Source of the DNA: Bacillota bacterium
GTDB taxonomy: Bacteria; Bacillota; Bacilli; Paenibacillales; Paenibacillaceae
DNA: 64,000 bases
Direction of reading: 5' to 3'
Assembly (NCBI GenBank): GCA_023391635.1
Contig: JAEWAQ010000058.1
Location: 89,429-153,428, forward strand
Of this stretch, positions 30,059-54,467 are shown one piece after another. Made by a program: the position numbers and the translations under genes. The notes under the pieces are model-generated. The model did not search any database, was not told the origin of the DNA, and saw only the letters and a list, made by a program, of their open reading frames with translations. The first letter of the stretch is position 1. Every line of letters begins with the position of its first letter.

Positions 30059-30454
30059 ATGTCTCAGCTCATCCATACCGAACGCGCGCCGTCGTTCCCG
30101 TTGCCATTCTCCCAAGCTTTGCGCGCGGGCGATTTCGTGTACGTGTCCGGCCAAGTCGGCGTCGACCCGCAAACCCGCCAAGTGGTGGGAGGCAAGATCG
30201 AGGAGCAGACCGAGCGGTGTCTGCGGAATATCGAAGCGATATTGAACGAAGCCGGATTGACGCTCGATCATGTGATCAAGGTGAATGCGTATTTGTCGCA
30301 CTCGGAGGATTTCCCGGGTTATAACCGGACGTATGAGCAAATCATGAAGCGCCCGTTTCCGACACGCACTTCCGTGCAGAGCGGCATCGGCGATTACTTG
30401 ATCGAGATCGACGTCGTCGCTTACGCGCTTGCGAAACGCGGTGAGCAGGCATGA
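30059..30454 (+). CDS. RidA/YjgF-family reactive-intermediate deaminase
   Basis: APSFPLPFSQALRAGDFVYVSGQVG and the C-terminal IEIDVVA motif. About 131 aa. Confidence 0.85.
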   Translation: MSQLIHTERAPSFPLPFSQALRAGDFVYVSGQVGVDPQTRQVVGGKIEEQTERCLRNIEAILNEAGLTLDHVIKVNAYLSHSEDFPGYNRTYEQIMKRPFPTRTSVQSGIGDYLIEIDVVAYALAKRGEQA

Positions 30455-31926
30455 CACTCCGGATCGCCGTTGCGGGGATTTATCATGAAACGAATACGTT
30501 CGCGCCCGGGCGTACGGTTCTCGCGCAGTTTGCGGACGAAAGGACCGAAGGCCTCGAGGCGTTCCGGCAGCGTTACGGCGGGACCCGCACTTCGATGGGC
30601 GGGGTGATCGATGCCGCGCTTCGTCAAGGGGCCGAACTGGTGCCCGGCTTGTATGCGGCCGCGACGCCGAGCGGCATGGTTGAGGCAGCGGCGGCCGATG
30701 CCTTAATTGATGATGTTGTGCGTTCGGTCGACCCTGGCGCATCCGGTCTTGTGCTGATTATGCACGGAGCGATGGTAGCCGAACAATACGAAGATTTCGA
30801 AGGGGAATGCTTAACCAGGCTGCGGGCGCGGTTCGGCCGCGAATTTCCGATCGCGATGACAATCGACCTGCATGCCAACATCAGCCGGGAAATGGCGCGG
30901 CTGGCGGACATCATAGTCGGCTATGATACATACCCCCATGTAGATATGTATGAAAGGGTGATTGAGGCTTTCGATCTGCTCGTCCGGCGTATTCGCGGTG
31001 AAGTCTCGCCTTCGCGTTCCTATGCGCACACCGGCATGCTGGTCGTCCCGCAGGCGATGATGACGGCCGAAGGCAGCATGAAGGCGTTGATGGACCGGGC
31101 GTTCGAGATCGAATCGGGCGATGCCCGCGTTCTGAATGTAACGGTGGCTGGAGGGTTTCCCTACAGCGATGTTGAGGATGCCGGTATGTCGTTCGTCGTC
31201 ACGACGGATGACGCCCCGGAGTTGGCCGACCGCTATGCGGCGGAATTGGCGGAGACGGCGGTACGCCTGAGAGAGACCTTCGGGGTCGTGCACTTGCCGC
31301 CAGAAGAAGCAGTCGCGGCGGCGCTGGCGGAGCCCTTCGGGCCTGTCATTCTCGCGGAAGGATCGGACAATGTCGGAGGAGGAGCGCCGGCCGACGCCAC
31401 GCATTTGCTTGCGCGTTTGACGAATGTCGCTCGGCCTGCCCTCATCGTTATCCGGGACGAGGAAGCCGTTGCGCTAGCGTTTCGACTGGGAGTCGGCGCC
31501 GAGTTCGAAGGAGAGATCGGTGGCAAGAGCGACGAGCTCCACGGCAGCCCGGTATCCGTGAAGGGAAAGATCCGCTTGCTGTTCGACGGCCGTTATCGCC
31601 ATGTCGGCCCCTACATGACCGGCCAACAGGCGGATATGGGAAAGACGGCGGTTCTCTCGTGCGGGATGCTGACGATCGTGTTGACCGAGAAGCGGACGGC
31701 ACCTTGGGATTTGGGGCATGTTCGCAGCGTCGGCCTTTGGCCGGATGATTTCAAGATCATCGTCGCCAAGTCGGCCATCGCCTGGCAGACTGCCTTCGGT
31801 TCGTTCGCCAAACGCGTCATTCACGTCGACTCACCAGGCTGCTGCAGCGCGAATCTCCGGCATTTCGAATATCGCCGCGTCCGCAGGCCGATCTATCCGC
31901 TGGACGAACGGGAGCGCGGCAGCTGA
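30451..31926 (+). CDS. M81-family metallopeptidase (MlrC-like)
   Basis: ATGA overlap with the RidA stop. The N-terminal IAVAGIYHETNTFAP is typical of the MlrC/DUF1485 family. 491 aa. Confidence 0.75.
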   Translation: MTLRIAVAGIYHETNTFAPGRTVLAQFADERTEGLEAFRQRYGGTRTSMGGVIDAALRQGAELVPGLYAAATPSGMVEAAAADALIDDVVRSVDPGASGLVLIMHGAMVAEQYEDFEGECLTRLRARFGREFPIAMTIDLHANISREMARLADIIVGYDTYPHVDMYERVIEAFDLLVRRIRGEVSPSRSYAHTGMLVVPQAMMTAEGSMKALMDRAFEIESGDARVLNVTVAGGFPYSDVEDAGMSFVVTTDDAPELADRYAAELAETAVRLRETFGVVHLPPEEAVAAALAEPFGPVILAEGSDNVGGGAPADATHLLARLTNVARPALIVIRDEEAVALAFRLGVGAEFEGEIGGKSDELHGSPVSVKGKIRLLFDGRYRHVGPYMTGQQADMGKTAVLSCGMLTIVLTEKRTAPWDLGHVRSVGLWPDDFKIIVAKSAIAWQTAFGSFAKRVIHVDSPGCCSANLRHFEYRRVRRPIYPLDERERGS

Positions 31927-32220: not shown

Positions 32221-34446
32221 ATGAATCGTCAGACACGGGATTCGCACGGTTTGAGAAACCTATCCTATAAACGCCGCCTGACGCTCATCGTCTTGTTGCT
32301 CAGCGTCATTCCCGTGTTGGTGCTCGGCATGTTCTCCTCGACGAATGCGGCATCGATCGTGCAACAGGAAGTCGACCGCAACCATCTGATGGTCCTGCGC
32401 CAAATTCAGAATCAATTCGATCAGTTTATGAAAAGCATGGACCGCACATCCTTTCAAATTGCCAGCAACAGCATTGTCGAGAAGTCGGTCGAAATCGGCC
32501 CGATCAGCAAAGATTTGGGCTATACGTTCGGCGCGATCGACGTGATCAGAAAAACCCGCAGCACGCAGGAAATCCATTTCGACGTATCGTTGGTATACAT
32601 GCATGAAGAGCAAGTGTACTCAACACGCTACGGTTTTGTCGATTTGACCGATTTTCCTTATCGCGACCTGCTGAATTCGGTCGGCTTCCGGTTCGATTCG
32701 ACGGTCGTCGTACCGCCGGAAGCCGGTCAACGCATGCATGAACTGCTCATCGTACGCCCTGTCCCCGCCTTTTATTCGGACCGCCCGGATGGTATTCTCG
32801 TCTTCCATATAGATCCCTCTCAGCTGATTGGGATACTGGAGCAGGTCGAATTGGGCCATAACGGAAAAATTCTGATTGCGGATGAACAGGGCACGGTCGT
32901 ATTCAGCCAGAATGCGGCGGAGATCGGATCGCGGATCTCGGCAACGTCGGAACCGTTCATGATTCGGAAGCCGACGGCCGAAGCCGGTTCGGGGGGAGCC
33001 TCTGCGGAAGAAGCCGGCAAAGTATCCATGAATGGCGACGATTATCTCGTCGCTTCGGTCCGTTCATCCTTTAACGACTGGTCGTATATCGCGATTACGC
33101 CTTACAAGGAGTTGACCAAGAAGGCGGGGGGAGTGCGCCGATTCACGCTCGGCCTGGCGGGCTCGCTCGTGGGCTTGGCCGTGTTGTTGGCGCTCTTCGG
33201 TTCGAATCGGCTGTATTCCCCCATCCAGCGGATGCAGCAGAAATTGCAGGGGGAATTCCGCGAACAGCTGCCGTATCTTCGGGATTCGATTTTCCTTCAA
33301 CTGGTGAGAGGCGAGATGTCCGAGAACGAAATTCGCGACAAGACGGAACGTTACGGCTTGCTGTTGAAAGGTTCGCGTTTCTATGTATGCCTTGTGGAAA
33401 TGGACGATTTCGCCCGATTCAAGCAAAAGTACAAGGAAAACGACCGTTCCCTGATGATCTATGCCCAGCGCAAAATGTTGGAGGAATTGTGCGAGAGCGA
33501 GCTTTCCTGCGTGACGGTATCCCCGCTGCCGAACCAGGTTGCCGTGCTGATCGGCACGAAAGACGCCAGCGAGCGGGCGGATGAGACCGTGCGCCGGAAG
33601 GCGATGGAATTCCGGAGCAATATTCAGAACTACTTCCGCCTGTCGGTTACCGTGGCGCTCAGTCAGGCATGTCGGGACTACACCGGAATCAGCGAGGCGT
33701 ATCAGGAGGCGTCCGATCTGATCGGTTACCGGATGCTGCTCGGCAGCGAGCAATTGATCGGGCACGAATCCGTCAGAATGCCGCTCGGGACTTCGGGGCA
33801 TTCGCTGATCGAACTGAAGAAGCAAATTTTGGCGGCGATGGCGAAGGGGGACGATGCCGAAGCGAAGGCCATTTTGTCGGCGCTGATCGAAGCGATGCCG
33901 CAACAGATGCATAATGCCGAATCCGTGCTGGGCACGTTCGCTTATCTGATCGGGGAATTCGACCGGCTCGTGCGCGAATGGAGCGATGGCAGCGGGGAAT
34001 TGGATACGAAGGAGCTGTACAAGCAATTGCTGGCCATGTCATCGCTGGCCGAGACGGAGCGTTGGTTCGCGGAGACGGTATTTCCGCTCGTCATGAATGC
34101 GCTGCAAGACGCGAACCTGCCGAAACGAACGAAGCTGGTCCAGCAGGTGCTGCAATATATTCACTTGCATTACGACACGGACCTGAGCTTGCAGCTAGTG
34201 GCCGATACGTTCGGGATGACGCCCCCGCAGTTAAGCCGGTTGTTCCGCGAAGAGCGCAACGAGTCGTTCAGCGACTATGTCCTGCGCTGCCGGATCGAGA
34301 AAGCGAAGGAATGGCTTACCCATACCGAAATGCCGATTCGGGAAATCGCGGAACGTTTGCGCTACGCCTCCGTCCAAAATTTCACCCGGATCTTCAAACA
34401 GATGACGAACGAGCCTCCCGGTCATTACCGGAAGAAATCCCGATAA
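32221..34446 (+). CDS. YesS-like membrane-associated AraC-family regulator
   Basis: N-terminal TM (LTLIVLLLSVIPVLVLGMF), an extracytoplasmic sensor-like region and a second TM. C-terminal AraC HTH (IREIAERLRYASVQNFTRIFKQMTNEPPGHYRK). 741 aa. Confidence 0.8.
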   Translation: MNRQTRDSHGLRNLSYKRRLTLIVLLLSVIPVLVLGMFSSTNAASIVQQEVDRNHLMVLRQIQNQFDQFMKSMDRTSFQIASNSIVEKSVEIGPISKDLGYTFGAIDVIRKTRSTQEIHFDVSLVYMHEEQVYSTRYGFVDLTDFPYRDLLNSVGFRFDSTVVVPPEAGQRMHELLIVRPVPAFYSDRPDGILVFHIDPSQLIGILEQVELGHNGKILIADEQGTVVFSQNAAEIGSRISATSEPFMIRKPTAEAGSGGASAEEAGKVSMNGDDYLVASVRSSFNDWSYIAITPYKELTKKAGGVRRFTLGLAGSLVGLAVLLALFGSNRLYSPIQRMQQKLQGEFREQLPYLRDSIFLQLVRGEMSENEIRDKTERYGLLLKGSRFYVCLVEMDDFARFKQKYKENDRSLMIYAQRKMLEELCESELSCVTVSPLPNQVAVLIGTKDASERADETVRRKAMEFRSNIQNYFRLSVTVALSQACRDYTGISEAYQEASDLIGYRMLLGSEQLIGHESVRMPLGTSGHSLIELKKQILAAMAKGDDAEAKAILSALIEAMPQQMHNAESVLGTFAYLIGEFDRLVREWSDGSGELDTKELYKQLLAMSSLAETERWFAETVFPLVMNALQDANLPKRTKLVQQVLQYIHLHYDTDLSLQLVADTFGMTPPQLSRLFREERNESFSDYVLRCRIEKAKEWLTHTEMPIREIAERLRYASVQNFTRIFKQMTNEPPGHYRKKSR

Positions 34447-34530: not shown

Positions 34531-34654
34531 GCGCAACGTTATTGTTCTTTATAAACGGGCGGCCTGCTCAAATGAAAATTGCGCTGTATTTCAACAAGTC
34601 TTATGCTGATGCCGTGAATCCGAAATGCGAGCCGAGATGGGAACAGGAGCCATG

Positions 34655-36019
34655 ATGGAAGAGGTGAAGCGCGCATGGTTAACCGTCGATTGCGCAGCGA
34701 GTGACATGCGTATCGTGCAGCATCATTACCGGACGCGTCGGGAACCGCTGATGACGCCGTTCGGTTTCAAAGGCAGATTTGTGCGGGAGTTATGGCAACC
34801 GCACGTACATCTTCAGGACGAGTCGGGCCGTTCGGCTGTCGGCATGGGCGTTCAAAGCCCGCTTTGGTGCGACGCGGCCATGTTCGCGCGGTTGGGCGAG
34901 ACCGAAAGCAACGACTGGATGGAACGGCTGACGCGATATGCGTTAACCGCGGCTGCGGAACTGGAATTCAAGCACCCGCTCGATCTGATGGACCAACTCG
35001 TTCCGATCGTTTACCGGCATGCGGCCGACCGGCTCGGCCATGATCGAATCAGCCGCACGTTCGTGCTAAACGCCGTGACCTGCATCGACCATGCGGCTTG
35101 GTCCCTCTATGCGCAATCCTGCGGAGAAGTTTCCTTGTTCCGTCTGGTGCCCGATCCCTGGAAAGGCGGATTGCCGCATCGGCATTCCGCGACGGCCAGC
35201 ATTCCGGTCATTCCGTACGGCATGACCGGCGGCGAGATCGCCAAGCTGCTGGAAGCCGGGTACTTCGTGCTCAAGATCAAGCTCGGCTCGGACCCCGAAG
35301 GCGACGGCGATCCCGTGAAGATGCTGGAATGGGATCAGGCCCGGCTTGCCCAGATTCACGAGCTGGCCAACCGATACGAGGCGCAGGGCCATGCGGACAA
35401 CTCCATTGTTTATTACTTGGACGCGAATGGAAGATACGACAGGAAAGAACGGTTGCTGCGGCTGCTCGAACACGCTCAATCGATCGGAGCATGGGACCGG
35501 CTTGTCTTATTCGAGGAACCGCTGCCCGAAACCAATCAGGAAGATTTGCGCGACATTCCCGTTCGGTTCGCGGCGGATGAACGCGTGCATAGCGAACAGG
35601 ATGCGCTGATCTGCCTGCAGCAGGGCTATCGGGCATTCGCCCTGAAGCCGGTCGCCAAGACGATGAGCTTCAGTCTGCAAATCGCCAGATTGGCTGCCGA
35701 GCATCAGGCCCCTTGTTTCTGCGCCGACCTGACCGCCAGCCCCGTGCTCGTCGATTGGACCAAGCTTCTCTCCGGCCATTTGGCGCCGCTGCCCGGGTTC
35801 CGCGGGGGGTTGACGGAAACGAACGGCGCCCAAAACTACAAGCGGTGGGCAGAAATGCGTTCCGAACACCCGATGAGGGGCGCTTCGTGGACCCAAGCCC
35901 GGCAAGGCTCGTTCGAACTGTCGGAGCGGTTCTATGCTTGCAGCGGAGGCGCGCTTCTGCATGGCGACGGAAGCTCGGTTACGGATAAGTCGACTTACGG
36001 GAAGGAGGGGCAGCCATGA
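34655..36019 (+). CDS. enolase-superfamily enzyme (MLE/MR-like epimerase, racemase or dehydratase)
   Basis: Barrel ligand pattern LKIKLG (KxK), YLDANGRY (Asp), LFEEPLP (Glu), FAADERV (Asp) and ALKPVAK (Lys). The start is ambiguous among 34625, 34637, 34652 and 34655; AGGAG at 34645 favours 34655. Confidence 0.65.
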   Translation: MEEVKRAWLTVDCAASDMRIVQHHYRTRREPLMTPFGFKGRFVRELWQPHVHLQDESGRSAVGMGVQSPLWCDAAMFARLGETESNDWMERLTRYALTAAAELEFKHPLDLMDQLVPIVYRHAADRLGHDRISRTFVLNAVTCIDHAAWSLYAQSCGEVSLFRLVPDPWKGGLPHRHSATASIPVIPYGMTGGEIAKLLEAGYFVLKIKLGSDPEGDGDPVKMLEWDQARLAQIHELANRYEAQGHADNSIVYYLDANGRYDRKERLLRLLEHAQSIGAWDRLVLFEEPLPETNQEDLRDIPVRFAADERVHSEQDALICLQQGYRAFALKPVAKTMSFSLQIARLAAEHQAPCFCADLTASPVLVDWTKLLSGHLAPLPGFRGGLTETNGAQNYKRWAEMRSEHPMRGASWTQARQGSFELSERFYACSGGALLHGDGSSVTDKSTYGKEGQP

Positions 36020-36945
36020 CCCGGTTGAAGTTCGGGATTGTGGACCTGGATACTTCCCATCCCGGGGAATTCGTTCCGATCATCCGATCGATGGGACATG
36101 AGGTGACCGCCGTGTACGACAGCGGCACGATATACCCGGCAGGCTATGCGGAAGCATTTGCCGGACAGCACGGGATCCGCATTGTGGCGGAAAGTCTGGA
36201 GAATATGGCCGAACATGTCGACGTGGCCCTGATCTGCGGGTGCAACTGGGACTTGCATGTAGGGCAGGCGCTGCCGTTCCTGTCCGCCGACAAAGGGATA
36301 TTGATCGATAAGCCGATGGCGGGGAACATCCGGGACTTGCTCCGAATCGCGGATTTCGCGAAAGACGGCGCCCGAATCGCGGGCGGTTCCTCCTTGCGGG
36401 TCTGCTACGAGGCGCGGGAATGGTCGGAGCTGCACGGATCGTCCGCGAGCTGGGTGTACGGGATAACCGGCTGCGGAGTGGACGAGTTCAATTACGGGAT
36501 CCATGGCTATGCGCTGCTTCACGGCCTGCTGGGCAGCGGGTTTGCAAGCGCCCGGTATTTGGGCACTTCCTTGCAGGATCAATTCGAATTGGAATGGGCC
36601 GACGGAAGACGGGGCATCGTCAGCATCGGCAAGGCCGATTCCTATCTGCCTTTCCATGCATCCGTGGTGACCGGCCGGGGCGTGCACCAGATTCAAGTGG
36701 ACAGCGGCAAGCTCTATCAAGCCTTGATCGAGCACGCGCTGCCGATCCTAAGCGGCGAATCGCCGGCGTCCATCCCGCCGGAGGCGTTGATCGCGCCCGA
36801 ACTGTCGGCTCTTGCGGCCAAGCGGTCCAAAGAGCTCGGGGGCGTACGCGTCCATGTCCGGGATATTCCGCTGGACGATCGCGGATTCGACGGCGCGGCA
36901 TTCGCCGCCGCCTATCGCAAACAAAAATCGAACAAAGAGGGTTGA
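36016..36945 (+). CDS. atypical Gfo/Idh/MocA-like protein (glycine-rich loop replaced by GIVDLDTSH)
   Basis: ATGA overlap with the enolase-family stop. N-terminus KFGIVDLDTSHPGEF and an ILIDKPMA (EKP-like) motif. 309 aa. Confidence 0.55.
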   Translation: MTRLKFGIVDLDTSHPGEFVPIIRSMGHEVTAVYDSGTIYPAGYAEAFAGQHGIRIVAESLENMAEHVDVALICGCNWDLHVGQALPFLSADKGILIDKPMAGNIRDLLRIADFAKDGARIAGGSSLRVCYEAREWSELHGSSASWVYGITGCGVDEFNYGIHGYALLHGLLGSGFASARYLGTSLQDQFELEWADGRRGIVSIGKADSYLPFHASVVTGRGVHQIQVDSGKLYQALIEHALPILSGESPASIPPEALIAPELSALAAKRSKELGGVRVHVRDIPLDDRGFDGAAFAAAYRKQKSNKEG

Positions 36946-36950: not shown

Positions 36951-37931
36951 GTGCGTGAATTCAAAGTCGGCATAATCGGCTGCGGAATGCTCGGCAGGAC
37001 GCATGCGGCGTGCATCAAGGAACTGGAGCATATGAAACCGTACGCTTACTGCGACATCCATCTTCCGAGCGCCCAAAAACTGCTGGAGCAGTTCGGGGGC
37101 AGAATAGCGACGTCCGAAGTGGAGGAACTGCTCGCCGATCCGGACATCGACGTGCTCTATATTACGACCCAACACGATACCCATGCGGAATTGTGCATCC
37201 GGGCGCTCGGGGCCGGCAAGCATGTGTTGGTGGAAAAGCCGATGGCAATGACGGTCGAGGACTGCGTGCGGATCGGCGAAGCGGTCAAGGCGACCGGGAA
37301 GAAATTGTTCACGGCGTATAAAATGCGCTATTACGATATGCTTCTGAAAGCCAAATCGTTGATTCCCGAACCGGTGATGGTGGTTATGCAAATGATGGAC
37401 GATCGATGGGGGACGGGCACGTGGCCCAACGATCCGGTGAAGGGCGGAGGGAACGTCCTGAGCCAAGGCTGCCATTCCACGGACGTGCTGCGGTTTATCG
37501 CGGGAGGCAATCCGACGGAAGTGTATGCGGCGGGAGGAAATTATTATCAGGAGAGCGGAGTCGTCGATAATTTGACAGCCGTGTTCCGCTTCGACAACGG
37601 CGTCGCCGGTACTTTAATTCAAGGAGATTGCAGCTGTCCGCCGTTTACGAGCAAATTTTTCATGCAGATTTTCGCCGAACGCAAATCGATTACGCTATCC
37701 GACCGGTTGACCCGGCTGACCTATGCGGAAGAAGGCCGCGAGCCGGTCGTTTACGAAGGGACGGAATCCGGATTCCTGGAAGAGAACCGGGCGTTCGAAG
37801 CTTGCCTGGTCCAGGATGCTCCGCCGCCGATCGACCATATTGACGGCTTGTATTCGACCTTGATGGTGCTGCAAGCGTTTCAATCTCTCAAAACCGGCAA
37901 ACCGGAAAAAATATCTTCGATCGTGGAATAG
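36951..37931 (+). CDS. Gfo/Idh/MocA-family NAD(P)-dependent oxidoreductase
   Basis: GTG 36951 follows AGAGGG. KVGIIGCGMLGRTH Rossmann loop and the VLVEKPMA motif. The ORF-track 5' extension (36420-36950) overlaps the previous gene in another frame. Confidence 0.8.
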   Translation: MREFKVGIIGCGMLGRTHAACIKELEHMKPYAYCDIHLPSAQKLLEQFGGRIATSEVEELLADPDIDVLYITTQHDTHAELCIRALGAGKHVLVEKPMAMTVEDCVRIGEAVKATGKKLFTAYKMRYYDMLLKAKSLIPEPVMVVMQMMDDRWGTGTWPNDPVKGGGNVLSQGCHSTDVLRFIAGGNPTEVYAAGGNYYQESGVVDNLTAVFRFDNGVAGTLIQGDCSCPPFTSKFFMQIFAERKSITLSDRLTRLTYAEEGREPVVYEGTESGFLEENRAFEACLVQDAPPPIDHIDGLYSTLMVLQAFQSLKTGKPEKISSIVE

Positions 37932-37979: not shown

Positions 37980-40754
37980 ATGAACGACATGACGTTAGGC
38001 CGCATCGGAAAAACGAACGCCATCCGGGAATCCGGGTTCGAGGCGTTCCGCCGGGGAACGTTCGGCCAAGCGGGGCAGAACCTGTACGTATCCCGCGCCG
38101 GAACGATTCAGCGCATCCATCACTTCGATGTCAACGGCGACGGATATATCGATCTGCCGTTCGCCAACTCGCATGATGACGATACTAGGGTTCCGGTATA
38201 CATCTATCGGGAGCCCGCGGTCAGCCAGGAACGTCTGGAATTGCCCACCGACGGCGGCTATGCCGCCGCGATGGGGGACCTCAATGGCGACGGCTACGAT
38301 GATCTGGTCATTGCCAATCAGTATGACGGCGTATCCAACGAGGTGTATGCGCAAATCTATTATGGATCGGCCGAAGGCTTCAGCGCCAAGCGGATGCTGA
38401 AGCTGTGGGCTCCCTCCTCCAAAGACGTGGAGATCGGGGATTTCAACGGCGACGGCAGGCCCGACATCGCGCTGATCAGCCGGGAGAGGCTGCGGATTTT
38501 TTACCAAGGAGAGCATGGCTTTGCTTCGGGCGGTTATACGGATGTCGACCTGCCGCACGATCTGGAGTCCATCGTGTCCGCCGATCTGGACGGCGACGGG
38601 TACGCCGACCTGGTCACCCGCTCCAGCGACCGGTCGATCGCGGTGTATTGGGGAGGCCCGGACGGGATTCGCGCGGACAGACGGACGAAGCTGGACAAGG
38701 GCTTGTCCGGGGAAGGCCCGATCGGGGCCGGGATCGATCAGGCGGCAAGCGGCGCGGGAGGCGGATCGCTGTTCGTATACGCCGTGCCGGCGAGGCCCCG
38801 GTTGAAGGTCGTCGCGCTGCATGGCCGTCCGCATCTGTTCGTATGCAAGGGTGAACGGTCGTTGTTCATTCCGTTCGGCGCGAACCGCGAAGCCGGGGAA
38901 CCGCTTGTTCTGGACAGCGGGGAGGCGATGAGCGCGGCCGTGGGAGACATCCGGGGAAACGGCGGGCAGGATATCGTGCTGGCTTCGCGGCAGACCGACG
39001 AACGGGGCGGGCAGCGATCCTGGATTTACTGGGACGGGCAGGGCGGTTACGCGAACGAATGGCGGACTGCCGTCCCGACGAACGGCGCCAACGATGTGAT
39101 CATCGGCCGGCTAAGCGGCGAAGAAGGCGGCTGCGAGGATATCGTCTTCTGTCAGGACAAGACGGAGGAGTGGTACAGCCATCATTCCTTGCTCTACAGG
39201 GGGACCCAGGCAGGCTTCGACCAGACGCCGGTCCGGCTGGAAACCCACTGTGCCTTGGATGCGTTCATCACCCGCGGTTCGGCCGGGAAGCCGCCGCAGC
39301 TCGTGTTCCTGAACCATCTCTCCAACCGGATATTAGGCAACGTATCGTCTTCTATCTATTTGGGCGGGCCCGACGGGTTCTCGCCGGAACGCAGAGAATC
39401 GTTGCCGGGCTGGGCCGCGACGGAAGTGCGAGCTTGCGATTTCAACGATGACGGGCACGTCGACCTGCTCGTGGTGAACAGCAATGAAAACGCGCTGCAT
39501 CTCGACAGAGGCTCCTACCTCTACTATGGCGGCCCGGAGGGATTTTCCCCGGACCGTCGGGTGGAATTGCCCACTAGATACAACATGAGCTCTTGCTGCG
39601 CGGATCTGAACAGGGACGGGTACCTGGACCTGCTCGCCGCAGGATTCAGCAACAACGAATTGCTCATCTTCTACGGGTCCGAGCGGGGGTTTGCGGATGA
39701 GCCGAAACGGATCAAGCTGGACATCGAGGGGATCGTCTTCGACAATCCGCGGTTCATGACGTTGGCCGATTTCGACCGCGATGGCTGGCTGGATCTCGTG
39801 ATTCCCGAATGCGGCCCCTCCGGCAAGACGATCATTTTGTGGGGCGGCCCCGATGGGTTCGATACGAGCCGGGCGACCTTGCTGCATACCGGCCCGACCA
39901 TCTCTTCGCGGGCGGCCGACCTGAACGGCAATGGCTGGCTGGATCTGATCGTCGGCGGGTACAAGGGCGACGATCCCGCCGATCCGTACAGCACCTTCGT
40001 TTATATTTACTGGGGCGGCCCGGAAGGCTTCTCGGGCGATCGCCGAACGCAGCTTCCGGCCAGCTTCGCGGCGGATATCGCGATCGCCGACTTCAACAAC
40101 GACGGCATATTGGACATCTTCGTCGCCTGTTACCATGGCTTGCGGAGCCGGGACATCGACTCCTTCATCTACTGGGGCAGTCCGGGCGGCCTCTATTCCG
40201 AGTTCAACCGGACGGCCCTGCCGCATCATTCGGCTGCCGGAGCGTTAGCCGCCGATTTCAACGAAGACGGATCCATCGACTTAGCAGTCGCCAATCACAA
40301 GACGCACGGCAACCATCCCGGCATGTCGTATGTGTGGTGGAACGGCCCCGACGGGTTTACCGATCGCCGGGTAACCAAGCTTCCGACCGTCGGCCCGCAC
40401 GGGATGACCCACTCGGATGTCGGCAATATCGCCGATCGCGGAGACGAAGAGTTCTACGAATCAAGACCGATCGAACTGCCGGAAAACGCACGAGTCGCCG
40501 GCATCTCATGGGTAGCGGAAATCCCGGCGAAAACGTGGGTGAAGGCGCAAATCCGAACCGCTTCCGGCGAGTCGGAATTGAATGACGCTCCCTGGGAAGG
40601 GCCGGACGGCGCGGGCAGCTGGTTCGAGCAGGGCGGCGAAATCGCCGCCAGCCTCCCGTCCGGCAAGTGGGTCCAGCACCGGTTGGCGCTGGGGGCGATC
40701 AACAGCGGCAGTACGCCACGTGTAAGCGAGGTTGCCATTCTGCTGGGAGAATAG
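37980..40754 (+). CDS. leaderless FG-GAP/VCBS-type beta-propeller repeat protein (about 12-14 blades) with a C-terminal beta-sandwich-like tail
   Basis: At least 11 clear DxNxDGxxD motifs (DVNGDGYID, DLNGDGYDD, DFNGDGRPD, DLDGDGYAD, DFNDDGHVD, DLNRDGYLD, DFDRDGWLD, DLNGNGWLD, DFNNDGILD, DFNEDGSID and others). Each is followed by a (Y/W)(Y/W)GGP(D/E)GF motif. There is no signal peptide or TM. ATG 37989 is an alternative start. Confidence 0.8.
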   Translation: MNDMTLGRIGKTNAIRESGFEAFRRGTFGQAGQNLYVSRAGTIQRIHHFDVNGDGYIDLPFANSHDDDTRVPVYIYREPAVSQERLELPTDGGYAAAMGDLNGDGYDDLVIANQYDGVSNEVYAQIYYGSAEGFSAKRMLKLWAPSSKDVEIGDFNGDGRPDIALISRERLRIFYQGEHGFASGGYTDVDLPHDLESIVSADLDGDGYADLVTRSSDRSIAVYWGGPDGIRADRRTKLDKGLSGEGPIGAGIDQAASGAGGGSLFVYAVPARPRLKVVALHGRPHLFVCKGERSLFIPFGANREAGEPLVLDSGEAMSAAVGDIRGNGGQDIVLASRQTDERGGQRSWIYWDGQGGYANEWRTAVPTNGANDVIIGRLSGEEGGCEDIVFCQDKTEEWYSHHSLLYRGTQAGFDQTPVRLETHCALDAFITRGSAGKPPQLVFLNHLSNRILGNVSSSIYLGGPDGFSPERRESLPGWAATEVRACDFNDDGHVDLLVVNSNENALHLDRGSYLYYGGPEGFSPDRRVELPTRYNMSSCCADLNRDGYLDLLAAGFSNNELLIFYGSERGFADEPKRIKLDIEGIVFDNPRFMTLADFDRDGWLDLVIPECGPSGKTIILWGGPDGFDTSRATLLHTGPTISSRAADLNGNGWLDLIVGGYKGDDPADPYSTFVYIYWGGPEGFSGDRRTQLPASFAADIAIADFNNDGILDIFVACYHGLRSRDIDSFIYWGSPGGLYSEFNRTALPHHSAAGALAADFNEDGSIDLAVANHKTHGNHPGMSYVWWNGPDGFTDRRVTKLPTVGPHGMTHSDVGNIADRGDEEFYESRPIELPENARVAGISWVAEIPAKTWVKAQIRTASGESELNDAPWEGPDGAGSWFEQGGEIAASLPSGKWVQHRLALGAINSGSTPRVSEVAILLGE

Positions 40755-40783
40755 TAGAAACGATGGAAGGAGGTGCAGCACGG

Positions 40784-41683
40784 ATGGTAGCCAGACGGTT
40801 GCGTAAGGATTGGCTGTTGCTCATGATCGGGGTTCCGGGCTTATTGTATTATTTGATTTACCGATTCGTCCCGATGCTCGGCCTTGTGATCGGCTTTAAG
40901 GATTACAGCCCGTTTCTCGGTTTTTTCGACAGCCCTTGGGTCGGGATGCGGCATTTTCGCGCGATCTTCGCGGAGCCGGAAGTAATGAACGTGTTGTGGA
41001 ATACGCTCGTCATTTCCTTTTTGCAAATCGTATTCGCTTTCCCGATCCCGATCGTGCTGGCGCTGACATTGAATGAGGTACGTCATCGGATGTTCAAGAG
41101 GGTCGTTCAAACGGTGATCTATTTGCCGCATTTTCTATCCTGGGTTGTCGTGGTCGGCATCTTCGTCTTCTTCTTGCAGGGCAACGGTCTGGTGAACGGG
41201 GCGTTAAAGAGCCTGTTCGGCATGTCCCCGGTGCCGTTCCTAACCGACCCGGTGCTGTTCAGGCCGTTGATCGTGCTGCAGGTCATATGGAAGGAGGCCG
41301 GCTGGGGAACGATCATCTTCCTGGCGGCGCTCGCCGGCGTCAATCAGCAGTTGTACGAAGCGGCCACGATGGATGGCGCGAACCGATGGCGCCAGGCGTG
41401 GCACATCACGCTGCCGTCCATCCGCGGCACGATCGTCATCTTGCTTATCTTGCGGCTCGGCAGCGTGCTCGATGTCGGATTCGAGCAGATCTTCCTGATG
41501 CTCAATCCGTTTAACAAAGAGTCCGGCAACGTGTTGGATACCTATGTGTACTACAAAGGAATCGAGCAGTCCGATTTCAGCTTCGCGACGGCGGTCGGAT
41601 TGTTGAAAGGGATCGTAGGACTCATTTTGGTCAGCACGGCGAACCTGTTGTCCAAGAAATGGGGAGAAGACGGTATCTTTTGA
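40784..41683 (+). CDS. LplB-type sugar ABC transporter permease
   Basis: ATG 40784 follows GGAAGGAGGTG. EAA loop (EAATMDGANRWRQAWHITLPSI). Confidence 0.85.
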   Translation: MVARRLRKDWLLLMIGVPGLLYYLIYRFVPMLGLVIGFKDYSPFLGFFDSPWVGMRHFRAIFAEPEVMNVLWNTLVISFLQIVFAFPIPIVLALTLNEVRHRMFKRVVQTVIYLPHFLSWVVVVGIFVFFLQGNGLVNGALKSLFGMSPVPFLTDPVLFRPLIVLQVIWKEAGWGTIIFLAALAGVNQQLYEAATMDGANRWRQAWHITLPSIRGTIVILLILRLGSVLDVGFEQIFLMLNPFNKESGNVLDTYVYYKGIEQSDFSFATAVGLLKGIVGLILVSTANLLSKKWGEDGIF

Positions 41684-41718
41684 GTTCGCGATGAGGAACG
41701 GGAAGGAGAGGGCCGTCC

Positions 41719-42597
41719 ATGCGCACGAAGGCTGGTCGCCGAAACAAAGGCATCGGTTGGTTCGACGGGTTCAACTATTCGTTATTGTTCGTGATTGCGC
41801 TCATCATGTTGTTTCCCTTTTTATACGTGCTTTCCATATCCGTATCGTCGTACAAGGATTATTTGCAGCACGGCTTCACGATCATCCCGAAATCGTTCGT
41901 TCTGGATGCGTACGAATACATTCTGGCCTCTCCGCGGTTCGTTCGCTCCTTGTTCGTGACGGCGGAAATCACGGTCATCGGGACATTGGTGAACCTGCTC
42001 TTCACCTCGACGTTCGCGTACATGCTCGCCCGTCCGATCGTCGGCCAACGCATCATGATGTTTCTGGTCGTGTTTACCTTGTTGTTCTCTGCCGGGATGA
42101 TTCCGACCTATCTCGTGGTGAAGGAGACGGGCCTGCTCAATTCGATCTGGGCACTCATCATTCCGGTCGCGATCAGCTCCTTCAACCTGGTCGTCATGCG
42201 CCAATTTTTCCTCCATATCCCGGAAGAGCTGAACGAAGCGGCCATCATCGACGGAGCGAACGATTTGCATATTTTCGCGAAGATCATCCTTCCGTTATCG
42301 AAACCGGCATTGGCCGCGTTCGGCTTATTCTATGCGGTCACGCATTGGAACAATTATTTCACGGGCATTTTGTATTTGAACGATCCGGCCGACTGGCCTA
42401 TACAGGTCATCCTCCGGCAGATCGTGATCGTGAACGAACCGCTGGCCGCGCTCAATATGCCCAGGGAATTCGCTCCGCCGGGGGAAACGGTGCAGATGGC
42501 CGCGACGCTGCTCGCCACGCTGCCGATCTTGATCGTCTATCCGTTTCTGCAAAAACATTTCGTCAAGGGGGTGATGCTGGGATCGGTCAAGGGATAA
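41719..42597 (+). CDS. LplC-type sugar ABC transporter permease
   Basis: GGAAGGAGAGG SD and the EAA loop (NEAAIIDGANDLHIFAKIILPL). Confidence 0.85.
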   Translation: MRTKAGRRNKGIGWFDGFNYSLLFVIALIMLFPFLYVLSISVSSYKDYLQHGFTIIPKSFVLDAYEYILASPRFVRSLFVTAEITVIGTLVNLLFTSTFAYMLARPIVGQRIMMFLVVFTLLFSAGMIPTYLVVKETGLLNSIWALIIPVAISSFNLVVMRQFFLHIPEELNEAAIIDGANDLHIFAKIILPLSKPALAAFGLFYAVTHWNNYFTGILYLNDPADWPIQVILRQIVIVNEPLAALNMPREFAPPGETVQMAATLLATLPILIVYPFLQKHFVKGVMLGSVKG

Positions 42598-42670
42598 GTC
42601 GTATTACAATGGGAACAGGGTGCAAGGCGATTTTTGCAAGGCCAATCAACTTCAGGAGGGGATTACGTCC

Positions 42671-44308
42671 ATGATGAAACGAAATAAAGGATGGTTCATC
42701 GCGGTGGTTTGTTTTCTGTTGGTACTGACAGCTTGTTCCTCCGGGTCGGGCAATTCCGGCTCATCTGCCGGCAGCCCGTCGGCCGGAGAGCAGCCGACCG
42801 CAACGAATTCGCCTTCGGCGAGCGCGGATAACGGCAATGACGGCCATGACCGCAGCAAGAAATTTACGATCACCGCGATTGACTTTCGATACCCGGCCGC
42901 CATTCCGCCGGCAACGGGCCGCGGATTGGATATGATCAACGAAAAATTCAATATCGATTTCAAGCCGCAATTTGTCGTCATCAACGATTACATGCAGAAG
43001 TTAAGCGCCAACGTCGCTTCCGGCGAGGTGCCCGACATCATGACGATGGAAGGTCCGATCGCCAACTATTACAAGTGGGCCAAGCAAGGGGCCTTCTTGC
43101 CGTTAAACGATTATATCGACCAGTACCCGACGTTAAAGCTCGTTCCGGATTACGTATGGAAATCGATGACGCTTGACGGCAAAATCTACGCGATTCCGCG
43201 TTATTACCCGTCCTCTTATTTGGGGTCGCCGATCATCCGTCAAGACTGGCTCGACAAGCTCGGCCTGAAGATGCCGACCAACTACGAAGAGCTGAAGGAA
43301 GTGGCCCTCGCCTTCACGAAGAACGATCCCGACGGCAACAACAAACAGGATACTTACGGCATCGCGATTTCCGAATACATCAACCCGGCTTATGAATTGG
43401 GCGGCTACTGGGAATTCCGCTCCTGGTACCATCAGGATGAGGCGGGCAACTACATCCCGAACTTCATCTCCGATGCGCGCAAAGAGCATATCGAATGGTT
43501 GGCCGGCCTGGAGAAGGAAGGGGCGTTGACGCCGAATTCCGCCGTCGTCAATGCTTCGCAAGCAACCAAAGATTTCTTCTCCGGCAAAGCGGGGATCTGG
43601 ATCGGCTCTCCGCGAGGGATGGATGAAGCGGCGTACAACGAGCTGCTGAAGATCAACCCGGGGGCGAAGATCGAACCGATCGGGCCGTTCGTCGCTCCGG
43701 ACGGCGAACAGGGATTCATGGCGTATAAGGCGTACTATGGCATGACGATGTTGAGCGCTGAGCTGGCCAAAGATCCCGACAAGCTGCATCGCGCACTCGA
43801 GTTTCTGGACTTCGGCCGCACGTTCTATCCGCTCGACGAACGGAACAAGAGCAATCCGGATTATGACTGGATGTACGGCAATGAAGGAACCGGCTATAAG
43901 GTCGAGGACGGCGCCGTCAAGGCGGAAAGCGCGGAGAAGGGGCTGGCTCCGGTCAACTTCTACATCGACGGGCTCATGTGGGCGCCGAGCGATGACGCGA
44001 ACGAGTACTCCAAAACGTATAAATCGCCGGTGGTCAAAGAGCTGGCCGAAAAACTGGAGAATATGCACAAGAACACGAAGCATTTCATCAACCCGATCTA
44101 CCAGATTTTCTCGGATACTTATATTTCCAAAGGCTCGGAACTGGATATGTTCCTGTACGAAGAGCAGACGAAGATGATCTTCGGACAACGGCCGATCAGC
44201 GATTGGGGCAAGATGGTCCAGGAGTGGAAAGACAAGGGCGGCGACAAGCTGATCCAGGAAGTCAATGAATCGATGAAGGCAAACGGCGTAAAAGGCGAGT
44301 ATCGGTAG
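42671..44308 (+). CDS. LplA-type large extracellular solute-binding lipoprotein
   Basis: ATG 42671 follows CAGGAGGGG. Signal peptide plus lipobox (FLLVLTACSSGS). About 545 aa. Confidence 0.85.
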   Translation: MMKRNKGWFIAVVCFLLVLTACSSGSGNSGSSAGSPSAGEQPTATNSPSASADNGNDGHDRSKKFTITAIDFRYPAAIPPATGRGLDMINEKFNIDFKPQFVVINDYMQKLSANVASGEVPDIMTMEGPIANYYKWAKQGAFLPLNDYIDQYPTLKLVPDYVWKSMTLDGKIYAIPRYYPSSYLGSPIIRQDWLDKLGLKMPTNYEELKEVALAFTKNDPDGNNKQDTYGIAISEYINPAYELGGYWEFRSWYHQDEAGNYIPNFISDARKEHIEWLAGLEKEGALTPNSAVVNASQATKDFFSGKAGIWIGSPRGMDEAAYNELLKINPGAKIEPIGPFVAPDGEQGFMAYKAYYGMTMLSAELAKDPDKLHRALEFLDFGRTFYPLDERNKSNPDYDWMYGNEGTGYKVEDGAVKAESAEKGLAPVNFYIDGLMWAPSDDANEYSKTYKSPVVKELAEKLENMHKNTKHFINPIYQIFSDTYISKGSELDMFLYEEQTKMIFGQRPISDWGKMVQEWKDKGGDKLIQEVNESMKANGVKGEYR

Positions 44309-44386
44309 CATCCGCGGGTTCAGACGCAGGAACGGCATGGTCAGGCGAAGTTCGATCACATTTTCCATTTGAACGAGGTGCTGAAC

Positions 44387-47300
44387 ATGAAAATCGGGTT
44401 TATCCGCAAGTTGTTGATCGCCGCGTTGGCAGCAGGGCTTGTTCTCCCGGTTGGAACCATGCCGCTTCATGCGAACGTTGCCGATGGGACGGGCGCTCCC
44501 GCTCTCCTCGGCACGTTCCCGGCGTTGTTCGAGGATGATGCCGACAATATGCAGCAGGCCGGTTGGTCGTTAAGCCAGCCGCCCGAAAGCGGCGTATATG
44601 CGACGGATGCGAGCCATTCGCTCGGCAACCCGAACTTGATCGAGATGAAGCCGGTCGATCCGGGCCAATATTTGTTCTACGGCGACAAGTCGGCCAGCGA
44701 CGGCGTTCGCTATACGATGATGACCAAGTCTGTGGCGATCGGCGATGGCGCATGGACACTCGAGTTCTCCGCCCGCATCGTCGACCTGGTGAAGCCCAAG
44801 CAGTACCCGGCGGAGCGCGGCATTCTGTTCATCGTTTATGCCAATGAGAAGCGGTACCAGGTCTCCTTCAACTCGATGAACAAACTGTACGGCTTGACCA
44901 ACACCCATGGGACGACATTCCAGGACAAGGAGATCGAGTATCCGCAAGACGATGCCTTCCATCAATGGGAAATCACCTTCGACGGATTGCAGACGGTATC
45001 GATCAAGCTGGACGGAATCAAAGTGGCCGCTTTCACCGGCATCGCGCTGCCGGCGTCCGGGCGCAACGACAGCATCGTCATCGGCAACTTGCCGCTGGAC
45101 TGGGAAGCCGGGACGAACGAAGTTTATTTCGATCATTTCAAGTTTTACAAGGGCAATCCGGACATCTATGTGCAAGATGACGCCGATTCCTTGGCGGATG
45201 CCGGCTGGACCCGCTTTCAAGCTCCGATCGACGGGGTGTATGTCACGGACTCCGGCGGTTCGCTCGGCAACCCGAACGGGGCGGCCATGCTGCCCGTCCC
45301 TGCCGGACAGTATTTGTTCTATGGCGATCAGCGGGCCAGCGATCTGAACAAGTATAGCTACATCAGCCAAAGCGTGCCTATAGGCGCGGGGGCATGGGAG
45401 CTTGGGTTTTCGGCGAAATTCAGCCAGTTGATGACCCCTGCGCGTTATCTGGCCGAGCGGGGCGTGTTCTTCGACATCCGCGCCAACGAGAAGCGCTACA
45501 AGATCGCGTTCAACTCCGGCAATCGCATCGTGGCCCAGGTCGGGTCCGGCAGCGCGGTGGATGTCAGGGAAGTGAATATGCCGGGCGATGACCTGTTCCA
45601 TTCCTGGAAGATTGCCTACGATGGCGTGAATGCCGTATCGGTCAGCGTCGATGGCGTCGTTCTGGCTCGATTCGAGAACATCGCGGGAACGGTAAACGCC
45701 GCGGACGGCATGTACATCTTCAATGCTCCGCTCGATTGGCAAGCCGGCGCGAATGAAGTTTACTTCGAGGATATCCGTTTGAGCAAGTCCGTGATGGGCA
45801 ACCCGAATGTCCTGATCGACGATGACGGGGCGGGGTTCCCGGCGATGAACTGGCAGGTCGATGCCCCGGCGGCGAATGCTTATTTCACGGACTACAGGAA
45901 GACGAACGGCAGCGTTGCGGGCATGAAGTCGGCAGCCGAAGGCACCTATGTGACCTATGCGGCAGCGGGGAGCGGCCAAGCGATGCAGCTATCCAAGCAG
46001 GTGGCGATCGGAGGCGCGCCATGGGCGTTGGAGTTCGATGCCCGGATCCAGTCCGAGGTCATGCTGGATGACGCGGTTGGCGATCCTGCCAAGGGGCTCG
46101 GCATGGAAATCGCCGCAGACGGCAAGCTGTACCGGTTCGTCTGGCAGGATGGCGATCGATTGCGATTGCTGAAAGCCGATGGCAGTTACGATTCCGTGCA
46201 GCTGACGATGCCTGACGCCCAGCAAATCCACCGGTGGGGCGTCGCCTACGATCAGCAACAGATCATCCTTTCGCTCGATGGCGTGAAACTCGGCAGCTGG
46301 CAAGGGCTCGGCTTGGCCCAGGCCGGTCCGGATCGGGCGCGCCTATACAACGATGCGACCGGGGCGGTAACCGGCGCGACGGAAGCCGTCATCGACCGCA
46401 TCCGATTGGTGAAAAACACGCTGCCGGAATGGGCGCGGTTCGCTCCCGTCATCACGAGCGTATCCGTATTGCCGACTTCCTCCCAAGCAAGCGGCATCGA
46501 GACGGTCGTTTCCATTCTCGACGCGAACCCGTTGTCCTATCAGGATGGTTCGCTGCAGGTGGAAGCGAGCTTGCGGCAGGACGGGACCCTGATTGCCAGC
46601 GGGCTGCAAGCGGCGACCGGGCCGGCCGTATCCGTTCGGTTGGATGCCGTGCCGGCGACCGGACGGATGGAATTGACCATCCGAATGCTGCACGACGGCA
46701 ACGAACTGACGGCGTATACGCGGAATATCGAAGTGTATCCGACGGCTGCCGTGCTGGCGCCCGGACAGCAAGCGACAGCGGCAGGCGGTGCGGCGACGAT
46801 CGGCGCGGCTTATCTGTACACCGCCATGGCGGATGTGTGGGACGAGACGGCAAACGCCGCGTTCGAGAAGGGAACCTCCGGCTGGGAGACGGCCACGTAT
46901 CAATATGAAGGAACCGCGGAGGGCGGCGTCTTCCTGGAGAATGTCGGCGCTGCGCATACGCTCAGCTTGCCGATCAACCTGAACGGCTGGTTCGGCGTTT
47001 ACGTCGGCTACGTGACGGGGACCGAACAGATCGTCGTCGGCGACGGTACGCAGGAGCAGACGGTGACGGTCGGGGGCGGCTTATCCGGCTCCGGTCCATC
47101 CTATGGCAACAAGGCCATTGCGGAAGCCTTCGCCTTCGCTTCCGAGTTTCAGGATGGAACCGTTACCCTGAAGACAGCGGGCGGGAAGCAGGCGCGGATC
47201 GCCTACGTGAAGCTCAAAGAGCTGACCCTGGAGGAGATTGCTCTCTATGCGGAGGCGGACGAATCCGCAACCGGCGGCGGGAAGCGGGTCGTTTACAACA

Positions 47301-53621: not shown

Positions 53622-53704
53622 TGCTTAGCCCGGAATTTATTCAAACTGCGGCCTGTTTAATCGGTTTGACATCGTTCGGACAGAGGAGTAATGTAGATTT
53701 AACA

Positions 53705-53715
53705 TGGTTTTACCA
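53705..53715 (+). promoter_or_regulatory. FadR/GntR-type palindromic operator, copy 3 (TGGTTTTACCA)
   Basis: Followed by TACTATTATTAA, identical to copy 1. It lies 33 nt downstream of TTGACA (53666-53671; TTGACA-17-TAATGT) and 90 nt upstream of the first FadR-type gene. Confidence 0.6.
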
Positions 53716-54454: not shown

Positions 54455-54467
54455 AAAGGAAACGAGC

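Follow-up and report, generated by a model that had tools for sequence, protein, structure and literature searches.

The window analysed here is a stretch of 64,000 nucleotides (nt) from a Bacillota bacterium of the Paenibacillaceae (contig JAEWAQ010000058.1, positions 89,429 to 153,428 of the forward strand). It contains an open reading frame (ORF) for a protein of FG-GAP/VCBS repeats, hereafter the FG-GAP protein, which lies between two Gfo/Idh/MocA oxidoreductase genes upstream and an ATP-binding cassette (ABC) importer downstream (Table 1). An initial annotation, made from the DNA letters alone, had described a 924-aa cytoplasmic double propeller in this position. The flanking genes are as described there and Pfam confirms the repeat protein, although a product of 921 aa is likelier. 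An AAGGGG ribosome-binding site abuts ATG 37980 and lies about 10 nt from ATG 37989 (M4), and a database protein that is 100% identical to the ORF product (P0001) has 921 aa; given this spacing and this length, the real product probably starts at ATG 37989. A missed upstream start, named in the initial annotation as a possible refutation, is excluded by an in-frame TGA three codons 5' of ATG 37980 (37971-37973), with further stops beyond, so that there is neither a longer N-terminus nor an added signal peptide.

The FG-GAP protein has no transmembrane segment or signal peptide (maximum Kyte-Doolittle 19-residue mean 1.07), in agreement with the location first proposed. A signal peptide is likewise absent from 123 of 126 full-length relatives, in which a conserved N-terminal motif starts 15-35 residues from the N-terminus, leaving no room for a signal peptide. 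Judged by these N-termini, the family is essentially cytoplasmic, with rare exported offshoots. The remaining three relatives (P0133, P0183, and P0230), all distant, have N-terminal extensions that resemble signal peptides or lipoboxes, and this minor branch of an otherwise cytoplasmic family appears to be exported. Tat export through the Arg-Arg pair at residues 24-25 was considered and rejected, as the pair is not conserved (consensus R-Q) and no hydrophobic region follows it.

Two Pfam repeat models place the protein in the VCBS/FG-GAP superfamily, both above their curated gathering scores and far above chance: FG-GAP_3/VCBS (PF13517) matches in 8 stretches with 162.3 bits against a cut-off of 26.9 (E 3.9e-48), and FG-GAP (PF01839) with 115.9 bits against 22.1 (E 5.5e-34). 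With a regular expression, 10 strict D-x-[DN]-x-[DN]-G-x-x-D loops are located: four start at residues 50, 100, 154, and 202, and the other six, canonical DxNxDG loops in as many blades of the second propeller, at residues 487, 542, 597, 647, 704, and 759. Two further loops are degenerate (residue 323 in blade B6 and residue 377 in B7) and blades B5 and B8 have none, which is close to the 11 unambiguous and two or three degenerate units counted initially. There are also 8 strict GGPxGF-type motifs, plus looser ones. Across a family alignment of 51 sequences, 11 of the 14 blades have a mostly canonical Dx[DN]xDG loop, and B7 is a twelfth loop-bearing blade of the family when a 2-residue insertion in the window protein is allowed for.

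An AlphaFold2 model based on 51 homologues (predicted local distance difference test, pLDDT, 90.6; predicted template modelling score, pTM, 0.87) contains 14 four-stranded blades of 40-57 aa and two additional N-terminal strands. The predicted blades fit two tandem seven-bladed propellers, as had been suggested, and the separately modelled C-terminal half (residues 425-924, pLDDT 81) superposes on seven-bladed propellers with target-normalised TM-scores (TMt) of 0.67-0.72. The array had been called almost crystalline, which overstates its regularity, as the blades are on average 25% identical to each other (maximum 41%). A recent duplication of a whole propeller was rejected: identity between blades n and n+7 is about 26%, not above the overall mean. 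The C-terminal domain noted earlier is resolved into a conserved 25-aa linker (residues 803-827) and a 97-aa beta-sandwich (residues 828-924). Up to E <= 5, Pfam matches nothing in the C-terminal region; the module matches 497 clusters at 50% identity (E <= 0.001) and is an unclassified mobile Ig/Fn3-like module. It is also found in two to four tandem copies in giant surface-type proteins of 832-2736 aa (P0152, P0158, P0174, P0215, P0227, and P0269), which carry RCC1, fn3, Laminin_G_3, DUF2341, or PPC domains as well.

A search of 5.8 billion proteins returned at least 1679 matches to the FG-GAP protein at E <= 1e-10. All of the best 120 span the full length (889-966 aa) at 46-87% identity, and they represent Paenibacillus, Cohnella, Propionibacteriaceae, Microbacterium, Verrucomicrobia, Armatimonadetes, Planctomycetes, Poribacteria, Kiritimatiellaeota, and Chloroflexi. 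The closest named relative is from Paenibacillus sp. PAMC21692 (87% identity), and orthologues from other phyla, spread over at least 8 phyla, are 45-50% identical. Two family-specific peptide patterns confirmed 409 relatives in species-representative genomes. No full-length Pfam or NCBIfam model covers the family (the NCBIfam match is to the domain-level repeat only), full-text literature searches found no paper on it, and its members are named in the sources only as VCBS or FG-GAP repeat-containing proteins. The family is thus a widespread and uniform but uncharacterised group of orthologues of about 900-930 aa, of which the window protein is a Paenibacillus-type member. Genomes often encode two or three paralogues, sometimes in tandem or within 10 kb of each other (L082, 1-1934 and 10001-12733; tandem copies in L046 and L053; L010, L022, and L048 in Paenibacillus eucommiae), and each Paenibacillus paralogue adjoins a different ABC importer.

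Conservation in the family is specific to individual blades. Mean column identity across the 51 sequences is 57%, against 25% between blades, which indicates that each blade is individually constrained. Outside the repeat consensus, residues invariant in close relatives are found in the N-terminal segment (G26, G32, N34, Y36, S38, G41, Q44, and R45), in blades 13-14 with the linker (Y718, R724, D725, H750, S751, H773, H779, S783, H807, E824, and S828), and in the C-terminal domain (W853, R859, W872, Q899, and R914). We then aligned 29 full-length distant relatives that are 29-46% identical to the window protein. The N-terminal segment retains G26 and G41 in all 29, G32 and Y36 in 28, and N34 in 27. 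At the end of propeller 2, H773 and H779 are present in 29/29 sequences, Y718 in 28/29, and R724 and H807 in 27/29. The linker and start of the sandwich keep R820 (27/29) and S828 (29/29), and the sandwich keeps R859 and Q899 (both 29/29) and W872 (28/29), while D725 and E824 are not kept.

On the predicted strand map, Y718 and R724 belong to the B-C loop of blade B13, H773 and H779 to that of B14, and H807 lies just past strand D of B14. Loops of this type form the top face of propellers, the usual seat of active sites. The position of the conserved residues in BC/DA-type loops, taken from the topology, therefore places them on the face that usually carries the active site, and in the model they probably mark an active site on the upper face of propeller 2.

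Structure comparisons of the full-length model against the PDB (Foldseek) return the multi-propeller scaffolds DDB1 and SF3B3 as best matches (E ~1e-12), because these too contain several tandem seven-bladed propellers. A closer likeness was rejected, as the TM-score is only 0.16-0.26 with a root-mean-square deviation (rmsd) above 20 Å, which leaves a match of topology; DDB1 and SF3B3 also differ in being eukaryotic and in having WD40-like blades without Ca loops. As the full-length match is topological only, residues 425-924 were re-modelled and the search repeated. The top three matches of this half are entries of aldos-2-ulose dehydratase (AUDH; 4A7Y, 4A7K, and 4A7Z; E 1.5e-9 to 6.8e-9; query-normalised TM-score, TMq, 0.48-0.50), followed by CRTAC1 (E 9.9e-9), BBSome subunits, integrins, the lectins PLL3 and PHL, and LGI1-EPTP. 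AUDH is counted among the VCBS propellers (PMC8023676), and it shows that a VCBS propeller can be an enzyme. The initial annotation had treated an intracellular FG-GAP protein as an anomaly; with a VCBS-propeller enzyme as the best structural neighbour this argument is weak.

AUDH of Phanerochaete chrysosporium shares the seven-bladed VCBS-type fold with propeller 2 and is of similar total length (~880-900 aa); its propeller has a catalytic and not an adhesive role. The title of one PDB entry names an active-site metal, for which H773, H779, and H807 are candidate ligands in the FG-GAP protein. AUDH acts on keto-sugars, the kind of product that Gfo/Idh/MocA enzymes make or consume. The architectures differ: AUDH, in the 2012 work of Claesson et al., is reportedly built of one propeller followed by cupin and lectin domains, whereas the FG-GAP protein has two propellers and a small beta-sandwich, with no Pfam match to a cupin or lectin domain. 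AUDH is also fungal, while the FG-GAP family is bacterial.

Sequence and profile searches of the PDB give only integrins and CRTAC1, over one or two blades (profile E 5e-9 to 1e-7), and no solved relative of the family beyond the repeat level. The propeller at the N-terminus of integrin alpha and that of CRTAC1 share FG-GAP blades with DxDxDG Ca2+ loops with the FG-GAP protein, but these proteins are extracellular and combine a single propeller with thigh/calf or UnbV_ASPIC domains. The FG-GAP protein has no Pfam match to thigh/calf or UnbV_ASPIC domains and no secretion signal. The best per-domain superposition on propeller 2 is given by seven-bladed VCBS lectins (Photorhabdus PLL3/PHL, the Psathyrella PVL type, and AAL2; TMt 0.50-0.70, rmsd ~5-7 Å). 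These are single propellers of ~350-400 aa that bind monosaccharides between blades at equivalent, repeated sites, whereas conservation in the FG-GAP family is concentrated in two blades and the linker and not spread round the ring.

Propeller-type carbohydrate-active enzymes (PL11 YesW/YesX, PL22, PL24, PL25, PL42, GH145, and GH74) resemble the FG-GAP protein in concept, in that a propeller is the carbohydrate-active catalyst. Catalysis in PL24, PL25, and PL42 relies on sets of His, Tyr, and Arg residues, and GH74 is an example of two seven-bladed propellers that together make up a single catalytic cleft. They are mostly secreted, and GH74 has BNR/Asp-box blades in place of the FG-GAP blades of the window protein. 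One of these families, RGL11, has been placed at the periphery of the VCBS supercluster (PMC8023676).

The gene neighbourhood of the family was compared in 79 loci from species-representative genomes and 6 loci obtained by exact look-up. The context of the FG-GAP gene is far from random, with BNR_2, Gfo/Idh/MocA, and ABC transporter genes recurring. As Pfam counts over all loci are biased by related Caldilineaceae and by one DUF790 lineage, we used 24 dereplicated lineages (below 62% identity) and scanned 130 neighbours within three genes with Pfam. The commonest are BNR_2 and Gfo/Idh/MocA (5 lineages each), ABC permease (4), substrate-binding protein (SBP) and NAD-epimerase (3 each); DHDPS, HpcH aldolase, MR_MLE, SDR, Amidohydro_2, 2-Hacid_dh, polysaccharide deacetylase, and PhyH are each found in 2. 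Association with Gfo/Idh/MocA genes, which the initial annotation had suggested examining, recurs in 20 of the compared loci. DapA/NanA-like genes are found in 9 loci and the window, and M81/MlrC genes in 12 loci and the window, among them loci of Caldilineaceae and Microbacterium, and L027. CUT1-type sugar ABC genes adjoin the FG-GAP gene in 11 of 12 Paenibacillus loci, including those of paralogues at 46-66% identity, often with a YesM/YesN-type two-component system, and Gfo/Idh/MocA and CUT1 genes dominate the neighbourhood in Paenibacillus and Caldilineaceae.

An iterated hidden Markov model built from the BNR_2 (sialidase-fold) protein of the window detects relatives in 16 loci. A small signal-less form of 345-430 aa directly adjoins the FG-GAP gene in L023 (Chloroflexota), L027, L042 (Gemmatimonas), L043 (Armatimonadia), L084 (Microbacterium), and L085 (Propionibacteriaceae), on either side of it, with overlaps of a few nt in L084 (1 nt) and L042; it is a few genes away in L044, L053, L057, and the window. 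The adjacency is kept across phyla even where gene order differs, and no other contextual signal is as strong. The BNR_2 protein, the best conserved neighbour of the FG-GAP family, is itself uncharacterised (best PDB match "uncharacterized protein Dfer_1899", 5HX0, E 4.9e-7).

Five actinobacterial loci have the FG-GAP gene flanked by a trio of ThrC-like, DoeB-like, and DapA-like genes together with an Opp-type ABC transporter and a GntR-FCD regulator. All of these families, with Gfo/Idh/MocA and M81/MlrC as further members of the set, are represented in the window, which suggests an undescribed catabolic island for an amino- or peptide-linked glycoconjugate. The term "sugar operon" used in the initial annotation is too narrow for this mixed island of carbohydrate and amino-compound genes, as M81/MlrC, Opp, ThrC-like, and DoeB-like genes recur as well. 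Genes from 34625 to 49756 of the window are separated by gaps of 30-60 nt or overlap, with no convincing terminator between them; no terminator is found 3' of the FG-GAP gene, and a promoter-like site only before the next gene at 49981. This spacing supports co-transcription of the FG-GAP gene with the oxidoreductases and the importer.

Table 1. Features of the window, with matching features of the compared loci. Positions are in nt; residue numbers refer to the 924-aa translation.
Feature	Position	Strand	Details and basis
FG-GAP/VCBS double-propeller ORF	37980..40754	+	924 aa from ATG 37980; 921 aa from likelier ATG 37989
Conserved N-terminal non-repeat segment	38034..38114	+	residues 19-45 (GFExFRxGTFGxAGQNLYVSRAG); alignment
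Propeller 1	38097..39242	+	blades B1-B7, residues 40-421; AlphaFold2 strand map
Poorly conserved Gly-rich insertion in propeller 1	38691..38795	+	residues 238-272; alignment/model
Propeller 2	39243..40385	+	blades B8-B14, residues 422-802; AlphaFold2 strand map
Candidate active-site region	40131..40463	+	residues 718-828 (B13/B14 BC loops, post-B14 loop, linker); conservation and strand map
C-terminal beta-sandwich	40461..40751	+	residues 828-924, four strand pairs; R859, W872, Q899 invariant; model/alignment
M81/MlrC-family metallopeptidase	30451..31926	+	library search
AraC-type regulator with dCache and GGDEF_2 domains	32221..34446	+	just 5' of operon; Pfam
Divergent enolase-superfamily (MR_MLE_C) protein	34625..36019	+	first operon gene, 464 aa; MR_MLE_C E 1e-9, weak
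Gfo/Idh/MocA-like oxidoreductase	36016..36945	+	weak N-terminal-domain match; Pfam
Gfo/Idh/MocA oxidoreductase	36951..37931	+	GTG start behind AAAGAGGG ribosome-binding site; ends 48 nt 5' of FG-GAP gene; Pfam/NCBIfam
CUT1-type ABC importer	40763..44308	+	Pfam
ABC permease 1	to 41683	+	start ATG 40763 or 40784 (not GTG 40667); Pfam
ABC permease 2	41719..42597	+	292 aa, BPD_transp_1 E 5e-12; Pfam
Lipoprotein-type SBP of ABC importer	42620..44308	+	Pfam
1795-aa protein	44369..49756	+	only C-terminal Big_2/Invasin_D3 (Big_1) domains recognisable, last ~230 residues; Pfam
Small signal-less BNR_2 (sialidase-fold) protein	49981..51147	+	orthologue of FG-GAP-adjacent gene in other phyla; Pfam
Second partner set	53615..60157	+	two GntR-FCD regulators and the catabolic genes below; library searches
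ThrC-like pyridoxal-phosphate enzyme	55267..56388	+	TIGR00260 179.6 bits vs cut-off 167.1; NCBIfam
Gfo/Idh/MocA, further copy	56406..57395	+	Pfam
DoeB-like AstE/AspA deacylase	57907..59199	+	Pfam
DapA/NanA-like enzyme	59264..60157	+	Pfam
BNR_2 gene adjacent to FG-GAP gene, L023	12808-13956		
BNR_2 gene adjacent to FG-GAP gene, L027	8699-9916		
BNR_2 gene adjacent to FG-GAP gene, L042	1542-2651		
BNR_2 gene adjacent to FG-GAP gene, L043	7405-8697		
BNR_2 gene adjacent to FG-GAP gene, L084	12787-13824		
BNR_2 gene adjacent to FG-GAP gene, L085	12796-13875		
Partner set, actinobacterial locus L084	1-9915		
Partner set, actinobacterial locus L085	1-9963		
Partner set, actinobacterial loci L005, L006, L031			

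From these observations we infer, with a probability of about 0.5, that the FG-GAP family is a putative catabolic enzyme whose substrate is an imported glycoside or glycoconjugate, or a keto-sugar formed from such a compound. The protein is read as an enzyme because of its blade-specific invariant His/Tyr/Arg set and its recurrent catabolic neighbours. The intracellular enzyme of the initial annotation is upheld as regards the cytoplasmic location, the enzyme-like conservation, and the catabolic neighbours, but the catalysis itself is only inferred. As to the chemistry, the presence of two Gfo/Idh/MocA genes directly upstream makes a scheme of oxidation followed by elimination or dehydration attractive. 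We tentatively propose that the FG-GAP protein could be a His-rich, possibly metal-dependent double-VCBS-propeller enzyme for beta-elimination or dehydration of keto-glycosides made by Gfo/Idh/MocA enzymes, paired with BNR_2. If so, and equally speculatively, it might be the first of a new class of carbohydrate-active enzymes of the cytoplasm, a bacterial, architecturally distinct counterpart of the fungal AUDH and an alternative "eliminase" for oxidative glycoside cleavage.

In the scheme that we favour for this operon, an oligosaccharide would enter by the ABC importer, a Gfo/Idh/MocA enzyme would oxidise a sugar hydroxyl to a ketone, and the propeller protein would then eliminate or dehydrate (or hydrolyse) the product beside the small cytoplasmic BNR_2 propeller. 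The DxNxDG loops, in up to 12 blades, would hold Ca2+ or Mg2+ in a structural role at the lower face, and the chemistry would take place on the upper face of propeller 2, at Y718, R724, H773, H779, and H807. R820 and S828 of the linker, and probably the N-terminal N34/Y36 motif, may contribute to the site. This could be a His3-type metal site that polarises the sugar carbonyl, as in AUDH, or a metal-free His/Tyr/Arg site for beta-elimination, as in propeller lyases.

Several observations weigh against an enzyme of this kind. The lead of AUDH over CRTAC1, BBSome subunits, integrins, and PLL/PHL lectins is less than tenfold in E-value, and since AUDH belongs to the VCBS propeller group, its top rank may reflect shared ancestry and not chemistry. 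Nor does AUDH turn up when PDB sequences are searched with phmmer or with profiles, for residues 690-830 even at E <= 10. The kinship to known propeller lyases and glycosidases that had been envisaged is not borne out: no PL11, PL22, PL24, PL25, PL42, GH145, or GH74 structure is among the Foldseek top 50 of either model, and the FG-GAP protein has no Pfam or NCBIfam match to any propeller-type carbohydrate-active enzyme family. H750, invariant in close relatives, is kept in only 11 of the 29 distant ones. Regarding gene context, the initial annotation had taken a random occurrence of homologues outside carbohydrate loci as a refutation; the neighbourhood is not random, but no partner is universal, many loci of the PVC group are without carbohydrate genes (for example L080), and in one planctomycete locus the gene stands alone among unrelated genes. 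Lastly, peptide and amino-acid partners (M81, Opp, ThrC-like, and DoeB-like) recur, which means that the substrate may be something other than a simple oligosaccharide.

The majority of VCBS/FG-GAP propellers serve as binding modules, and the structural neighbours include lectins (PLL3, PHL, and AAL2), integrins, and scaffolds (DDB1/SF3B3 and BBSome). The protein might accordingly be a non-catalytic, lectin-like or docking double propeller of the cytoplasm that holds a substrate or organises partners such as BNR_2; the overlaps of a few nt between the two genes would fit a hetero-complex. We consider this rather unlikely, as a blade-specific His/His/His/Tyr/Arg set kept down to 29% identity is more typical of catalysis or metal binding, and as paralogues in single Paenibacillus genomes stand beside different ABC importers, as substrate-specific enzymes would. 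Nor, to our knowledge, has a cytoplasmic lectin been described from a bacterial catabolic operon. The recurrence of M81/MlrC peptidase, Opp-type permease, and SBP_bac_5 genes raises a different alternative, namely an enzyme (an amidase, lyase, or cyclase) for the non-sugar part of a glycopeptide or amino-acid conjugate, encoded in a conserved island for catabolism of peptides and amino compounds and not part of a sugar pathway proper. ThrC-like, DoeB-like, DapA-like, and RidA genes adjoin the FG-GAP gene in Microbacterium, Propionibacteriaceae, Microlunatus, and Phytoactinopolyspora, and the same families are found in the window. Yet among the partners the sialidase-fold BNR_2 protein is linked most tightly and most widely, Gfo/Idh/MocA and CUT1 genes prevail in Paenibacillus and Caldilineaceae, and the ThrC/DoeB/DapA trio is limited to Actinobacteria and the window, which makes a dedicated non-sugar enzyme improbable.

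FG-GAP repeats that carry Ca-loop motifs typically belong to extracellular proteins, copies of the C-terminal module are present in giant surface-type proteins as well, and the N-termini of P0133, P0183, and P0230 resemble signal peptides or lipoboxes. An adhesion or surface protein like the classical FG-GAP proteins, which would leave the cell along a non-classical pathway or have a start that was overlooked, is nevertheless very improbable for the window protein, in view of the upstream in-frame stop, the lack of any hydrophobic segment, the short N-termini of the 123 relatives, and the unconserved Arg-Arg pair. A defence or toxin role is without support. PADLOC reports 0 defence families for the FG-GAP protein and its BNR_2 partner, and matches to PliI, XAC2610, and Tli3 were discarded as repeat-level only. 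The same applies to the TcB/TcdB toxin: PF12256 (TcdB_toxin_midN) reaches 26.1 bits (cut-off 24.8), no single stretch of the match is significant (residues 200-224 only), and Pfam finds no other toxin domain in the protein, RHS/SpvB domains included, so that PF12256 is a repeat-level cross-match.

If the putative enzyme is indeed catalytic, the family would be a new enzyme family for soil and aquatic bacteria of at least 8 phyla, perhaps with a new route of cleavage or dehydration of imported glycosides, and hundreds of genes that now go by no other name than "VCBS repeat-containing protein" would gain a function. The conserved pairing with cytoplasmic sialidase-fold, Gfo/Idh/MocA, NanA/DapA-like, deacylase, and M81 genes suggests a catabolic pathway for some glycoconjugate that has yet to be described. 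If it is only a scaffold, it is a routine conserved hypothetical protein. A new family of catabolic enzymes is plausible, and for the time being the family ranks with the many other conserved hypothetical proteins that catabolic loci encode. The analysis yields concrete targets, namely residues to mutate, a partner to co-express, and an operon to induce.

The partner proteins were also considered as clues to the substrate, and none is informative. The enolase-like protein that opens the operon has no NCBIfam match and no PDB sequence match. The first ~1570 residues of the 1795-aa protein have no Pfam and no PDB sequence match; an extracellular depolymerase is possible. Related giant neighbours in L001 and L045 have BNR_2, F5/8-type-C, DUF2341, and SLH domains and signal peptides. 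A family of ~547 aa, absent from the window, is found within a few genes of the FG-GAP gene in five loci of different lineages (L027, L042, L044, L054, and L078; for example L078 4443-6083) and has no Pfam or PDB sequence match, and a 461-aa protein of L084 has no informative PDB or Pfam match.

Within the importer region, a 327-aa ORF (41691-42674, +) is the longest in its place, but it has no Pfam match, overlaps the true permease 2 in another frame, and was rejected as spurious. SDR, GDSL esterase, and AKR genes lie 3' of the BNR_2 gene. The window also contains three sugar-sensing regulatory units typical of Paenibacillus, all on the forward strand: the one-component dCache-GGDEF_2-AraC regulator just 5' of the operon, and two pairs of a YesM/YesN-type histidine kinase and an AraC response regulator (5028-8304 and 11837-15234), each beside its own ABC importer.

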